64,000 nt of DNA. It comes from Raillietiella orientalis (lineage: Eukaryota). The notes under the pieces were generated by a model. That model was given only the letters and a program-made list of their open reading frames with translations, was not told the DNA's origin and did no database searches. Made by a program: the position numbers and the translations under genes. The stretch is taken from NCBI GenBank assembly GCA_036172245.1, contig JAYWIR010000031.1, positions 2,046,001 through 2,110,000 on the forward strand. Reading direction: 5' to 3'. Positions 45,518-64,000 of this stretch are shown piece by piece. Position 1 is the stretch's first letter, and each line of letters begins with the position of its first letter.

Positions 45518-48500
45518 GGTGTTAAGACTAACTATTTCAAGTCCTACATCAATTTTTACTGATTTTAGTGGTTCACCAACAAAACATCAATAACTATTCC
45601 AGAGTTAATCCATATTGAATACTGGATTCAATAAGATTCATAGAGTGTATGCATCCATATAAACACAACACATAGAAAAATAAAGTTGGACCTTCAGAGA
45701 TGAGAATTTCGAAATTGTTTTACTTTGATCAATTAATTTCCATCAAATGTAGATTGAGTAAATGATTATGGAAAAAGGTTTCTTTGAGAATTTTGTAACT
45801 GTTCGTATTACTGTGTATCTAAATAGTAAATATTACAAGGTAAAAATTATTACACGATGGATGCAGGGATTAAAAAAATAATTTCAGTTTGTCTTTCCTG
45901 TTACCCAGGAATCAGTTTTGGGAAAGTGGATTTTTTTTTTTTATGAAAAGCAAACTTGAATTTTTAGCACTCTCGTTTTAGAGCTCCTTGTTTTTACAAA
46001 AAGGAACGTTGTTTTTCTTCCCATTTCCATGATGTCTTCCTCTTTATCTTTGAGAACACGTTATCCTCTAAATTCCTTCGAGAAAAGTGTTTTCAATCTA
46101 AAAATGGCATCCTTAAAATCTGTAAAAAAAAAATTCTTCCTTTGATGTATGCCTGGATGTCACTTGTATGTAATATACAATATTATTTTCGATACACGAC
46201 ACATCGAAAATGCATTGAATTTACCTATTCTGTAGACACATTTTTATTTTGTTTTTGTGTTGATATTAACCAGTCAAATACTTGTAAAAAACCTATGAAT
46301 ACAAAAATATGTAACTTGCTTAAAAAAAGATAAGAAACAATCATATTTATCCAGCTTTCGAGAGGTTTGCCTTTCAGTGAGTTTGAGATACTACATGGAT
46401 GATAAATCATAGCCCAAATTGAAGTGAGCATCATCTTCACAAATTACCAGCCCAAGGCAGATCTTCAGAATAGAGTGATAATTTTATTGAAAATAAAATA
46501 AATGACTGCTATGGAATTGATGGCATAAAAAATCAATACTTATCATCAAAGATGGAGCCCATAAAGTCATATAAGTATAGAATTACGAGTGTTTCTTATT
46601 GTGAGTATTGATGTACTTATTATTTGGAGCTTACGAGCACAGTCAATTTACTAAATTAAAAACGAAGTTTACCATTAACTAGCAATATTAGAGGTATCAG
46701 TAATTATCTGATAAATTAATTATAGATTATGTAAGCTCAAACAAATTTTGTCATGTCTGAAATGTGTACCCCAAAAATGTGAGAATAAACTCTTTTTAAG
46801 GGGTCGTTACCATTAACTACTTTTTTTTCGTTCAGATTTTATATTACCTTTGAGCTTTCGTGTCCGAGCTGAGTTTCAAGTTTCTTTTCATCTGATTAGC
46901 TGTACTGTCTGTTGTAACTACATGCCAACTAATGTGCTTGAAAATTATAGTTAGGTCATAGAGGAACTTTTTCCGTATTACTGTTCTACATTTATGAGCA
47001 ATTACTGTTCACATAGAATCGGGGAACTAGCAAAGACATTGCGAGTGCAGAAATGTCGTCCATTTTCTCTTAGCGCCCTACTAAAATGAAAAGGGCTGAG
47101 GACTGATGAAAACTACAAAACCAGAACGCTGTTTTCTAATGCTGATGCCTTTTTTTTTTTTTTTTTTTCCCCTTTCCTATCTTCAGCTTTCCTTATAACT
47201 CAGCTTTACTAATTTTTTTTTGCTTCATTTCCGTCCTTCTTCCTTTTGGATTGTTCTCTTTCACACTGGAAGAGTTCCGCCTGCATGACGCAACGAACTG
47301 ACACTTCAATCAAACTGAAGTAGTCCTTCAGTAATCATTTCAAAGTTTAGTTATAAATAAGAAAATAAAAGTTGTTTGTTATTTTATAAACTTAGACGTC
47401 AGAATAAACATGCCGAATTTACATGGCAAACGGGTATTGCATTCTTGCACCACCTATTTGCCTGGGCATACCTGCTGTTGCTTTTTTATTACCGTGCGAT
47501 TACGACAACGCTAACGTCGGGTCCGAGGTACCTCAATGCAACGCACGCTTGGTCCCGCACCAAAGAGCTACCAGGAAGTGCCAAGTCCCGACTTCTGTAA
47601 TTACAGTATTATCTCCAATGTCATTCTTCAGGTGGGAGTAATTTCAAATGCTCCATCGTTGGCTTGTTTTTCCGTTTTAAGGAGGTGGACACCCTTATCT
47701 ACAACTTCTGGGAGTGGCGTGGATTTATGAAGCAAAACTGAACTTCTGGCAAATATGGGCAAAAGAGGACTCGAATTAATACAATATTTTTTTCCCTTCA
47801 GATAAAACAAGCTTGCCGAGTAACATTAATTTCAAAGTACTGATATCTTTATGTAGAGTGTTTACTTTACTTGATATAACTATTGCATGAAACAGCAGCG
47901 TAGATAAATAGTTAAATAATATTCGCTGAAATTTCAGTACGTCTGAAAATCATGAATAATTAAGCGGAAATTTATTTTGGCTTCGTGCTTCCACGATTCA
48001 TGATGCAATCTACTTTCGGATTATTTTTGTGTAATGGTTCCCTTAAATTCCTCACAAATTGCATGTCTCAGATGTTTCTTTGTGAAATCAAGTAATTTTA
48101 AAATGTTCGCATAAAACATTTGATTTTTATTTTGATAATACATCGGAAAGACTCAGCCGACTCGCTTAACTCAATTGGCCTATAGCGTTTACCTCCTTTG
48201 TGTTCAACGTTTGGGAAATGAAGTTACGAACGAACCTAAAAAAAGCTAAAATTTATTGGTCGTACTTACGTTTATTTCTTTTTCGAATTTTGAAATTACA
48301 TGTAGGCGATATGCATTGTACGAGTGGGTATCTTGCTTGATGATGGACGTTGTACAGAACCGGTGCATGCATCTTCGTTGTGAACTGATGTGCCTTTTTG
48401 ATTGTGAACTGTTGTTACTGATGTGCCTTTTTGATTAATTAGCAGTGGCCACTTCAAGGCGGATAAAGTTTCTATTGCATGTGTCATCACTAAGGCTGAG

Positions 48501-49705
48501 TTTACGAATTTTTTTTAATGATGGCAATATGCTTTAAGATACTTACAGAATGTTATCTGATGGAAGCAGATTTACTCCTCTGTCTAGTTTCAGCATTATT
48601 CAGACCGTACATCTTGAATAAAATGAAAAAGTTCTGTAATATTTGTGGGATTTACAGATCAATCCACAAGGTTGTGGTTAAGTAGCACCAAAATGTACGT
48701 AGATGAATTGATTTAAGCGCTCGTCATGTAAAATACAGAGCTCGGACTCCTGCTCTATGCCAGTATGTTAAAATGTAGCAAAACACTTTTTCCGTTAAAA
48801 TTAAATTGTTATTTTTTATGTGGACACTCCTTTAACATGTATACTATAAGCAATAATTAGAGAAAGCCTAACGTTATTGGTAAAACTTGAAAGTTATATA
48901 TTTTTAATACTACAGCTGAATGGTGATACTGTATTAACATAAAATGAGTTTTCATTTGTACATTTATGATCATTGTAGGAGACACTTCTGTGGATTTCTT
49001 AATCCCGTTTCATGTTATATATGCTTTAAATCAATCTTTCAGGTTTATATTGTAGAATTTCTTCCATTGTGTGGACTCCATCTTTACATAAATCCTGGCA
49101 GCAAATGAATCGTAGTTGTCACTTTACCATTCTATATTCTTCATGTTATCCAGATAAGAGTGAGAGTATTCCTTTGTATGCTCATAACCTACAAACGATT
49201 ATTTTTGATTTGGAATAAATGATGGGGAACTTACATACTTCACTTATCTCCCAGACCATCAAATTTTTTGTGCATTATTGACCTGTCTAAGTATCTGGTG
49301 TTAATAAAATTTGGTTTATATTGTTATCCAACTACATAGAAAGTTTACGCTTTGTCACTTCCACATTTAGACACACCACAGTTTACTTATCCCACAATAA
49401 GCATTTTCCTTTTGTGATCCACATTATTTGTATTTATTTCTTACATTCAGCCTAATTAAATATTAACTGATATGTTTAATTAACTCAAGTACGACTATTC
49501 TTATGAATTATACATTTATTTTAAAATACTTTTAAAAGCATGCTTCTTATTCATAATCAGGATGGTACCTTCCATAGTGATTCCACTGCAAGTTAGGTTT
49601 CAAATACAACAGAACGTTTCACTGGTAAGAAAATAATTAGGAAAACCAAAAGGAAGCATTTAAATTTCAAAATGCCTTAAAAAACAATTTATTTTGTAAA
49701 TAAAT

Positions 49706-60814
<11,109 letters not shown>

Positions 60815-61999
60815 TTCAATACAATTTTGAACAACAAATAAATCAAATGGATCACTTGTGACCGTTTTGTTATCTGTTGCACTTTTGTTGTGCCCGGTCA
60901 CTTTTGTATGCTTGCTTGCAATTCGCCCAATGTCTGTTAGTACCTATGAAAAATCTCTCCAAGCACACATTTTTGATTTGCTTTTGTTGGGAACTGAAAC
61001 ACACGTGCAAATTACTCTTACGAAAATTTGCATGAAACGTTCAACTTTGCAACAACACAGAATGTTTCGTATGTGAAAAGCATGCTGACAATGTACTCCA
61101 ATTAAACGGTTTATTGTAGATAATCAGTTGTGATCGACAAACAATTCTATTTGGATCTCATTCTCACTTTCTTCAACTGTGGTCATTACCGGCAGCCAAA
61201 GACGAGCGAATTTCCACAAAACTGAATTTCTTTGCATGTAATAAATGATCTTAAATAGAAAGTTCGCTTTCTTAAATGCTATCAAATATTTTCAGTGAAT
61301 GTATAGAACGACTGCTTATTAAATTTCTAACATTATTTACGCCAGAAAACTTAATGAAATTAAATGCTTTGATTCATTTAGTGAAACATCTGAAATTTTA
61401 TTTATAATTTTTCAACCAATCAGTGAATCCAACAGTAACGCTTTCAGGATGAATCTCCAGAATTCGTAATATCTCAGAAAGCCACTTTCGCTATAACTGC
61501 TTTCGATGTTATTAGCCAATTATTTTCCAGAATTAAATAGTGCCGCCTTGAGATCAAAATTAATGCAATCCTCTTATTTAATTAAAATTTTTTTATTCTC
61601 TTTAAATGAAGCTTGCCCTGAAAGATACCAAATAACTTTCAAACGTTAACTGCTTTTAAGATTTTGGTGGTAGACAGCAGTTGGTCTTTTTTGCTAAAAC
61701 AGTTACTAAACCTTGTGTGAATTAAAGCCCACTATTTAAATTTCATTACGAGGACGTCTAATGATGACTAGTTATGATATGTACATACATTTACTGCTAA
61801 CGCTGTTATATGTTTATTTCGTTTGGCAGCGCAATTTTCCAAAAGATACGAGTGGTATGCGGAATGCACTCAGAACGTGAATAATTCTTTGAATAGATCC
61901 GACTTAAAAGAATACGTCCTTAAAGCCAAAGAAATCCTATGTGATTTCTATGTTTATAAAACTTTGGTTTGTTTATGTGGTTGATGATAGGAAGATCCT

Positions 62000-62245
62000 T
62001 TACTGAACTTCTTTAAACAGACCACTTATCTTTTGCATATTACAAATTGTTAATACAACGCTCATTAAACCAGGTATAAAACAGGCCAAGCTATAGTAAT
62101 ACAAACTAGTACTAGATAGGCTGTAAACTAAAGTAAATGACAAAAAATATTTTATTGCAATAAATAACGCAATCTCCCTATTCATAGAAGAACCTCTCTA
62201 ATACATTTCCCAATAAATTCTTTAATTTTACCTACATTTTACCAT
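62000..62245 (-). pseudogene. Bacterial-type gene junction fragment: end of one ORF ([15 protein letters not shown]) overlapping by ATGA the start of a hydrophobic membrane-protein ORF; probable endosymbiont origin
   Basis: ATGA overlap at 62185-62182 with AGAGG just upstream. The intronless hydrophobic ORF MNREIALFIAIKYFLSF...LYYYSLACFIPGLMSVVLTICN directly abuts the dnaA fragment. Product not identified; a CAAX-protease-like N-terminus is only a guess. Confidence 0.45.
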
Positions 62246-62246
62246 A

Positions 62247-62471
62247 GTATTCACAGTGGAAAAGCGCGTGGCAAAATCTGTGGATCCAATACTAGGTAGT
62301 AACCCTTCATTTCTATATGATGGGGTGGGACTTGGTAAATCACACCTAATGCATGCTATAGCTTGGCATATAGTCAATTCTCCATCAGCAAAAAGAAAGG
62401 TGATATATTTATCAGCAAAAAAGTTTATGTACGAAGCAAAGACATTATGTTATTTAAAGAGCAATTTAGAT
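62247..62471 (+). pseudogene. dnaA: Fragment of bacterial chromosomal replication initiator dnaA (Wolbachia-like), frameshifted
   Basis: [62 protein letters not shown], then in a shifted frame [13 protein letters not shown]. This matches DnaA domain III ([20 protein letters not shown]...YLSAEKFMY...FKEQFRSVD). The [17 protein letters not shown] segment is as I recall it for Wolbachia DnaA. Confidence 0.9.
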
Positions 62472-62553
62472 GGCATATTGGGTAGGAAGTAAACCAACTT
62501 AATTTTCAAAGGTTCTATTGAAGAGCTAACCGTTGGAACAGAAAATGCCAAGC

Positions 62554-62727
62554 CAGCTAAGAAACCTTGTATTTGCTGTACTATTGTTTTGCACTGTGTG
62601 CACCGTATGTCTTTATAAAATTTCCGTGTTTTTACCTATACAAGCCAAAACGCGCTTATAAAGCGTTCAAGACATCACCCAACGTCAAATTTTGGCATAA
62701 AGAGTACAATAACTAGCAACTACAGGT
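62554..62727. repeat. Probable Wolbachia-type intergenic palindromic repeat
   Basis: Non-coding stretch containing CCTATACAAGCCAAAACGCGCTTATAAAGCGTT (imperfect AACGC-GCTT/AAGCGTT palindrome) and AATAACTAGC. It resembles, from memory, dispersed intergenic repeats of Wolbachia genomes and lies between two clear bacterial gene fragments. Confidence 0.5.
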
Positions 62728-62732
62728 TTTAT

Positions 62733-62950
62733 TATTGGACAATAAACCAGTTGACAGAATTTTTGCGCAACTATAAAAATACACCAGAAAAGTTTCATCA
62801 GGTTTTCATTATTGACTCCAGAATGGAGCCTATAGGAAGCGTCCATTTAAAAAAGGTAATATATCTCACTCAAGCGAAACACCAATGAAAGAGATAATGA
62901 ATCAGGACATAAAAATCATTAAAACTGGAATAGACCAAGAGGAAGTAGCA
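62733..62950 (+). pseudogene. mgtE: Fragment of bacterial magnesium transporter mgtE (CBS-domain pair), frameshifted
   Basis: YWTINQLTEFLRNYKNTPEKFHQVFIIDSRMEPIGSVHLKKVI, an extra TA at ~62860, then SHSSETPMKEIMNQDIKIIKTGIDQEEVA*. This matches the MgtE pattern WTV...LR...YVVD...G.V.L..L...V.EIM...DQEEVA. It is absent from the ORF track. Confidence 0.85.
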
Positions 62951-63638
62951 TGATTCGTATTTTTTTGTTCGTACCATCGCAAGAGCCAAAATTATGATGC
63001 CAAAGTCCTACATCCGTTTGTCAGCTGGACAGTAGAAAATGTCGGGTGAACTACAAGCATTATGTTTCCTTGATGGCGCTACCCCTTCAACGTCGAGCAC
63101 TGCAAATGGATCTTTTCGAATATATTGTTTTCTTTACAGGAATCAAGAAAATTCACTGCATCGTCTCTTGAGAGCCCCACAGTGGTTTGGGTTAAATCAT
63201 TAGTGTCAAAACTAAAAAAACATTAGTGACAAAATGCAGAAGGTTGAAAATTATTTTTTTAAAGAATGCATAATAAATAATCGTTTTTCATATAGGTTTA
63301 TATTTGAATGAAAAAAATCCTGGATCATGTGTTCTGATTAAATATCTATTATAGTCAACCTCTGCGTAGATATATTTCTAGTATATGTATTCCTAAAATC
63401 TAATCCTGTTGTATGCTTTGTATGATTTCGTAGAAGTGAAGACTTTTTAATTAGAAGTAAACAGAATGCGAAATGCATATCAACTGAAATCGGGATTTTT
63501 CCATCGTAAAAAGACTCATTTTCCTAACCAGTAACTTTCTTTTTTTTGCCCGGAAGCTCTAAGTCATTATGATATCAATGTACCTGTTGGCGTTTTGAAA
63601 GTCTATGTTGAATTCTTGCTTCGTTTTGTCCATATATA

Positions 63639-64000
63639 ATGGCTAATAGTCTGACGCTGAAGGCAATATGTACAAAAGTCATGAAATCGCAACTACACCA
63701 CACTCGTATACTTCGGTATATAGAGATGATGTTAGGAAGGTTCACCCACATGACCCGCGATGTGTGGATCAACCACAACGACCTCGCGTGGTCTAGGGGG
63801 ACCAAAATAAACCTCCGAAGACTCATCAAAAAAGAGGACCGAGACATCAGTGCCCTCCAAGAAGCCGCCGATCGCTACGGGAGTGACCGGATCAACCTGT
63901 TAGCGATCGGAACTACGCTCTGGAGGAGTGACCTTCCGCCGGACACGCAGGACAACCTCCTGATGTTTTATCATGGAGGAATCCAAAGCGGGTCCAGTAC
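63639..64000 (+). mobile_element. Probable non-LTR retrotransposon (LINE) APE-like endonuclease N-terminal fragment; frame is open off the window end
   Basis: GC content rises abruptly from ~63735. The open frame reads ...WINHNDLAWSRGTKINLRRLIKKEDRDISALQEAADRYG..., resembling the APE/EEP motif 'L..LI....PDI.ALQET'. Confidence 0.5.

Follow-up and report, generated by a model that had tools for sequence, protein, structure and literature searches.

How does a patch of bacterial-type DNA, in which short gene fragments follow one another in either orientation, come to lie in a contig of an animal genome? The question is raised by a stretch of 64,000 nucleotides (nt) from Raillietiella orientalis (GenBank assembly GCA_036172245.1, contig JAYWIR010000031.1, positions 2,046,001 to 2,110,000 of the forward strand), which as a whole we call the window. 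A mosaic of Wolbachia origin occupies positions 61999-63219 of the window (1,221 nt) and consists of seven abutting pieces, 93-246 nt in length and in mixed orientation. We consider it likely that the mosaic is a non-functional nuclear Wolbachia transfer (nuwt), in which unlinked Wolbachia fragments were end-joined in one germline break-repair event. The seven pieces, with their identity to Wolbachia, are the following.

61999-62244, minus strand: piece 1, the 5' end of an Rce1-like/CPBP gene with its leader; matched at the protein level
62245-62471, plus strand: piece 2, an internal dnaA fragment with the Walker A region; 73-83% nt identity
62467-62559, plus strand: piece 3, an internal fragment of fabD (malonyl-CoA-ACP transacylase); 72-81% nt identity
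62559-62733, strand not applicable: piece 4, from the interior of a Wolbachia repeat that is multi-copy and hairpin-forming; up to 86-88% nt identity (genomes G001 and G002)
62730-62953, plus strand: piece 5, an internal mgtE fragment; up to 86% nt identity
62951-63081, plus strand: piece 6, an internal fragment of bioB (biotin synthase, BATS domain); up to 90% nt identity
63079-63219, minus strand: piece 7, an internal fragment of ppdK (pyruvate, phosphate dikinase); up to 87% nt identity

The map comes from a DNA search of 61900-63100 against five Wolbachia genomes, refined by local BLAST. The five come from the hosts Psylliodes chrysocephala (G001), Cantharis cryptica (G002), Litomosoides sigmodontis (G003), Laodelphax striatellus (G004) and Dirofilaria immitis (G005). 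A wider search of the genus covered 60 Wolbachia genomes, and we also used one complete chromosome of 1,551,378 nt (G049). Wolbachia genomes provide the best matches found for six of the seven pieces, which is the outcome of the BLAST comparison with Rickettsiales that an earlier note, made from the letters of the window, had proposed. These six are 72-90% identical at the nt level to living Wolbachia (E 1e-11 to 1e-69); the seventh, the CPBP-like piece 1, is matched at the protein level only. Chance is excluded because E-values reach 1e-26 to 1e-69 against genomes of 1-1.8 Mb. Genes were named from the Wolbachia open reading frames (ORFs) under the matches and from Pfam searches of those ORFs, and also from frames in the window itself (Pfam Bac_DnaA for dnaA, TIGR01828 for ppdK). 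The coding fragments span 31-82 codons, and each is internal to its gene or comes from its 5' end. The description in the earlier note, of several short bacterial pieces joined directly in mixed orientation, holds well, with seven pieces in place of four plus a remainder. The remainder, 62472-62553, had been left unassigned, and is fabD on the plus strand at 62467-62559. The end that the note had given to the mosaic, 62953, has to be moved, as bioB and then ppdK continue directly to 63219.

What do the pieces still encode? In the dnaA piece, the frame 62226-62492 matches Pfam Bac_DnaA (E 3.7e-13) and its Walker motif reads DGVGLGKS, against GGVGLGKT in Wolbachia. A tblastn search with the DnaA fragment gives 17 loci: 12 titled Wolbachia, four metagenome-assembled genomes (MAGs) titled Rickettsiales bacterium or Candidatus Mesenet, and one Rhodospirillaceae MAG. 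In the best tblastn segment the amino acid (aa) identity is 72-78%, and 60% for the Rhodospirillaceae MAG; the best nt identity across the 60-genome tables is 82-83%. A 19-nt deletion shifts the dnaA frame. The fabD piece, where the underlying Wolbachia ORF is a Pfam Acyl_transf_1 protein, carries an in-frame TAA and a 3-nt insertion. The mgtE piece, from the CBS-pair region, is equivalent to residues 154-227 in the Wolbachia ORF, with MgtE_N on one side and the scored CBS domain on the other; it has a best nt identity of 85-86% and a 2-nt insertion that shifts the frame. In the bioB piece there is an in-frame TAG. This gene is present in 12 of the 60 Wolbachia genomes, ten of them at 81-90% nt identity to the window and the other two at 75-77%. 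The frame of the ppdK piece matches TIGR01828 (E 1.3e-10) and is shifted by a 1-nt deletion. All five well-matched coding pieces (dnaA, fabD, mgtE, bioB and ppdK) thus hold a frameshift or a stop, as the earlier note had seen for dnaA and mgtE, both of which it had also recognized as internal fragments. None of the pieces retains the intact reading frame that a domesticated gene would need.

The palindromic repeat that the earlier note reported is real. Positions 62559-62733 have 40 matches in the G049 chromosome, 27 of them near full length, and fold into a long hairpin (z = -3.25). The Wolbachia copies stay conserved for at least 25 nt past both ends of the window piece, and the repeat is cut within the element on both sides. 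Rfam has no family in 46500-64000 at E ≤ 0.1, the repeat included. The Wolbachia element as such is at least ~230 nt long, is hairpin-forming, and has dozens of copies in G049, G001 and G002.

Could the mosaic simply be symbiont DNA that reached the assembly by accident? In that case, Wolbachia reads from a live infection or a contaminant would have been misjoined into the host contig. We compared each coding piece with its Wolbachia orthologues (18 for dnaA, 2 for fabD, 30 for mgtE, 13 for bioB and 15 for ppdK). Over codon positions 1:2:3 (263/262/261 sites), the states private to the window are distributed 19:17:17, whereas those private to single Wolbachia sequences are distributed 32:18:80 (chi-square against the window, p 7e-4). 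Of the 429 first and second codon positions at which all the Wolbachia sequences agree, 34 are different in the window (Jukes-Cantor distance 0.084), and in a tree the end branch of the window measures 0.19-0.2, against 0.02-0.13 for six genomes. Since the private changes are spread evenly over codon positions, the copy has drifted neutrally, by about 8%. The mosaic has drifted in this way after loss of function, unlike contamination from a live symbiont; the lesions and the absence of a codon-position bias support the argument from decay that the earlier note had made. A live symbiont would have intact genes, and the order of the pieces is found in none of the Wolbachia genomes examined.

Sequencing data also bear on the misjoining of reads. 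One public DNA run, which may be the assembly's own sample, matched part of the stretch (share 0.18; no RNA runs were listed). A 281-nt contig of this run (62654-62934) bridges the repeat/mgtE joint and a 151-nt contig (62978-63128) bridges the bioB/ppdK joint. Neither differs from the window; three host pieces have a depth of 2-3, and the two contigs come close to this with 6 and 3.4. Two inner joints of the mosaic therefore recur at host-like depth. A misjoined assembly would fit with the fact that a read spanning a junction between host and insert was not seen among the listed contigs; weighed against the broken genes, the even substitutions and the recurring joints, it is hardly credible. 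Because no junction-spanning read or contig was seen, the case for integration is built on the assembly together with the decay argument. The contig holds intron-split animal genes (USP7, NCKAP1, BAG6, a RasGEF gene and SF3B2/PSP), and the assembly places the insert between the USP7 exons (to 60119) and a probable host repeat at 63.6 kb.

Did the pieces arrive together? The private divergence is 11/202 in dnaA, 12/222 in mgtE, 9/131 in bioB and 10/141 in ppdK, which is homogeneous (p 0.87; p 0.24 with fabD included). An alternative is that independent fragments entered one fragile site in succession, over a long time. As described below, another Wolbachia piece, 15 kb away, is clearly of a different age, so that symbiont DNA has come into this neighbourhood on more than one occasion; fabD also has a higher private divergence (11/90, from two reference sequences only). 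Repeated independent hits would not be expected to leave pieces of homogeneous divergence that abut with an overlap of 0-5 nt and with no host DNA between them, and we regard serial insertion as improbable.

Were the pieces neighbours in the donor? We compared the whole window with the complete G049 chromosome by blastn and by six-frame tblastn, and each piece was located once: dnaA at 1,014,183 (plus strand), fabD at 977,604 (minus), mgtE at 532,397 (plus), bioB at 942,075 (plus) and ppdK at 252,599 (minus). The pieces are equally scattered in G001-G005. Throughout the six genomes with mapped positions (G001-G005 and G049) they lie tens to hundreds of kb apart, and in none of the six do they share one strand and a monotonic order. 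The earlier note had suggested mapping the pieces onto Wolbachia chromosomes, and the positions are scattered, neither collinear nor adjacent. Besides the mosaic and the site of the second piece at 47.2-47.6 kb, the 64-kb window has no Wolbachia match in G049, and window positions 1-40000 have none in G001-G005.

These positions bear on two further ways of making the mosaic. In the first, a large insert (tens of kb to a whole genome) would have been eroded by six or more deletions, possibly together with inversions. Wolbachia inserts of very large size have been recorded, as far as the portion of PMC4299567 used here describes them, and dnaA, fabD and bioB all lie within 72 kb in G049. In G024, mgtE and ppdK are 6.5 kb apart with the order and orientation of the window. 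However, deletions preserve order and strand, which are shared by the pieces in none of the six mapped genomes, and at least six independent deletions would each have had to spare just 93-246 nt. Moreover, bioB separates mgtE and ppdK in the window, while the bioB part of the query has no match in G024, and the cuts inside the repeat element on both sides are a further difficulty. Erosion seems to us unlikely, and we favour ligation over it, although the evidence does not separate the two decisively. In the second, the mosaic would have been made in the donor, in a junk region of the Wolbachia chromosome, a prophage or a plasmid, and moved as one. The Wolbachia genomes searched are indeed rich in repeat copies and have some broken genes, such as the CPBP-like copies of G054. 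On the other hand, the 60-genome tables give one match per piece per genome, for dnaA, fabD, mgtE and ppdK throughout and for bioB except in G045 and G034, where it occurs twice. Among the matches compared, the closest two pieces on one contig are mgtE and ppdK, at 4.2 kb in G031 (6.5 kb in G024 and 9 kb in G011), and the complete G049 has each piece once and scattered. We see very little room for a mosaic pre-made in the donor.

How were the pieces joined? Outside each end of the six nucleotide-matched pieces, the alignment between donor and window falls to random level. The fragments, even the repeat, are cut internally, which is consistent with random fragmentation of the donor DNA. At the five inner joints the strict microhomology is 5 (TAGAT), 1, 4 (or 1), 0 and 1 nt, with no filler; TAGAT at 62467-62471 is common to the end of the dnaA piece and to the fabD piece. 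Under a blunt-join null, which averages 0.75 nt for each joint, P(sum ≥ 11) is 0.009 and P(sum ≥ 8) is 0.07; for most joints, the donors available for scoring were 10-23% diverged. The joints show no long homology. A 28-nt word across the dnaA/fabD joint had no match in one scan of metagenome contigs.

Because the cuts are internal and the pieces short, of similar size, in either orientation, without filler and of one age, we favour one capture-and-ligation event. DNA of a bioB-carrying Wolbachia strain would have been broken into pieces of ~90-250 bp, and at least seven of these, unlinked on the symbiont chromosome, would have been joined end to end in either orientation, with no filler, during the repair of a germline chromosome break. 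We infer that the joining took place in a single event, at or before integration, and the likely route would be non-homologous or microhomology-mediated end joining. Afterwards the insert drifted neutrally, gathering ~8% substitutions and small indels, and it encodes nothing today.

Several observations weigh against this capture of unlinked fragments. The private divergence of fabD looks higher than that of the other pieces, as judged from two reference sequences, and no contig spans a host-insert junction among the 8 of 141 pieces listed. A deletion could explain the mgtE-ppdK pair, given its arrangement in G024, if bioB did not separate the two in the window. In G003, dnaA, fabD, mgtE and ppdK are on one strand, in an order that is not monotonic. 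Wolbachia genomes are highly rearranged, so the arrangement in the actual donor may differ from those that we mapped. The matches of piece 1 are poorer than the others (33-45% aa, with the leader unmatched). Finally, the excess of microhomology is suggestive only, as its p-value hinges on one joint and the donors are diverged.

Which Wolbachia was the donor? Because bioB belongs to a patchy, laterally acquired operon, the donor strain probably had these biotin genes at least in part. The operon, BOOM, has a patchy distribution in Wolbachia and was gained there by lateral transfer, five times independently (PMC7750005). In comparison with BOOM, the window has a single-gene remnant, 131 nt of bioB with a stop. 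The earlier note had expected that phylogenies would assign the pieces to a supergroup. In a tree built on 610 columns from the window and six genomes, the window remains unplaced, with no starred fork; the nearest genomes by path are G001 and G049, and the identity rankings differ from piece to piece by a few nucleotides only. The linkage of mgtE and ppdK varies by lineage (4-9 kb in three genomes, hundreds of kb in G049) and could help in placing the donor.

The CPBP-like piece at the left edge is matched less well. Its minus-strand frame, 62003-62185, makes up the first 61 codons of a ~280-aa Rce1-like/CPBP membrane protease, with the start codon ATG at 62185-62183 and a premature stop after the 61 codons, at 62000-62002. 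The frame is matched in 7 of the 60 Wolbachia genomes, at best with 45% aa identity (E 5e-9), and the full-length Wolbachia homologue is a PF02517 protein. There are nine Wolbachia matches, seven at 33-45% aa and two at 29%; the latter are both broken copies with internal stops in G054. At the nt level, 61999-62058 is 80% identical to G018, and 61999-62244 is otherwise almost without a match. The five genomes G001-G005 give no nucleotide match to this piece, and no protein match at E ≤ 0.01. Among 400 scored Rickettsiales genomes there is no closer relative, and the clear ones are just two Wolbachia, G058 and G007; a weak extra match (E 7e-4) is in G142, a genome outside the 60 Wolbachia, and candidates in one additional genome remained without a score. 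A search of 5.8 billion proteins found no match among the longer proteins, and Pfam and NCBIfam have none on the window frame itself. The 59-nt leader, 62186-62244, carries a GAGAGG motif resembling a ribosome-binding site; no homologue of the leader was detected, and it may be a separate scrap. The earlier note had read the start of this frame as an ATGA-coupled gene junction. The ATGA is instead a Met-Asn start (ATGAAT), as in the Wolbachia homologues. We rejected coupling after examining seven homologues, as no upstream frame runs into the start codon.

The second Wolbachia-derived piece of the window stands outside the mosaic.

47170-47620, minus strand: rpsU (S21), spacer and tRNA-Pro(UGG), a collinear stretch

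Flanked by the 3' ends of NCKAP1 and USP7, this piece is found ~2.1 kb past the stop codon of USP7 and ~15 kb from the mosaic. Two Wolbachia genomes, 97% identical to one another in this stretch, match it at 68%, and by Jukes-Cantor distance it is about five-fold more diverged than the mosaic. ARAGORN finds no tRNA in window positions 46500-48500, though the Wolbachia counterpart has tRNA-Pro. The much greater divergence of 47170-47620 indicates that it is an independent and much older transfer, and that the host lineage acquired Wolbachia DNA at two clearly different times. A more specific history is possible, and we offer it tentatively: the mosaic may have been stitched by polymerase-theta-type repair, and the USP7 neighbourhood may record at least two infections or transfer episodes, the later from a strain with the biotin operon that was possibly nutritional. 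If such a two-episode history with a biotin strain is true, the locus is a fossil of symbiont gene content as well as of symbiont presence.

How does the mosaic compare with known inserts? It is an ordinary kind of feature, a decayed nuwt, in an unusually scrambled form. Transfers from Wolbachia to hosts are common, and another instance is not news in itself. Large Wolbachia inserts, such as that of Drosophila ananassae, are long and mostly collinear with the donor. The mosaic shares donor genus and direction of transfer with the large Drosophila ananassae inserts, and many Wolbachia transfers are large, so far as the cited part of the account extends (PMC4299567); unlike near-complete genome inserts, it consists of 1.2 kb of shuffled scraps. 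In the section of PMC4046930 consulted, degraded nuclear Wolbachia fragments with frameshifts and stops are described in Dictyocaulus viviparus, and our mosaic is similarly fragmented symbiont DNA with frameshifts and stops, which the assembly places in a host chromosome. In Brugia malayi, two adjacent nuwts come from different parts of the donor genome (PMC3849323, in the excerpt cited here). This is the closest account among the partial texts at hand, and differs in that seven pieces of 93-246 nt abut here. A limited search of the nuwt literature, in partial texts, found no account of a seven-piece Wolbachia mosaic or of junction microhomology. Similar in form are the nuclear insertions of mitochondrial and plastid DNA (numts and nupts) and the "numins", where, according to the available part of PMC6215612, several fragments from separate places in the donor come together prior to integration or in the course of it, with the hallmarks of end joining. 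Like such complex insertions, the mosaic has direct abutment and either orientation, and its overlaps of 0-5 nt may be microhomology of the same kind; unlike them, its donor is a facultative bacterial symbiont and not an organelle. This suggests that bacterial DNA may enter animal chromosomes via the fragment capture known for mitochondrial and plastid DNA. A compact and fully mapped multi-fragment insert is a record of mechanism, with joints readable to the single base. Inserts of this type also give false Wolbachia-positive results in screens by polymerase chain reaction or by reads with dnaA or similar markers, and they are not to be removed from assemblies as contamination.

The right edge of the insert is the end of the ppdK piece, 63219. 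Against the 60 Wolbachia genomes, 63220-63700 gives only matches of 23-26 nt (E 8e-4 to 5e-3), and on the left side 61000-61998 gives only matches of 32-39 nt (E 3e-4 to 6e-4). The ppdK end 63198-63212 (TCATTAGTGTCAAAA) is repeated with two mismatches just outside the insert, at 63221-63235 (ACATTAGTGACAAAA). This 15-mer near-repeat could be a copy made by templated end joining, or chance.

The host genes run, over window positions 4356-60119, in the order SF3B2-like (PSP domain), BAG6, RasGEF gene, an SMC-like exon (named by eye, with no Pfam match), NCKAP1 and USP7. On the minus strand, the exons of USP7 occupy 60119 to 49709, and the insert is ~1.9 kb upstream of the first recognisable USP7 coding exon. 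The USP7 exon that we tested is 57-62% identical (aa) to its best matches, which are from a centipede, an isopod, a weevil, a nemertean and two metagenome proteins; species close to the host are scarce among these matches, by which the host would be an invertebrate and probably an arthropod. At 63612-63998, running off the end of the window, is an open frame of 129 aa with higher GC and no Pfam match, on which diverged contigs of the public run stack to a summed depth of 42, against 1-9 nearby. The region, 400 bp away from the insert, probably represents a repeat or transposon of the host.

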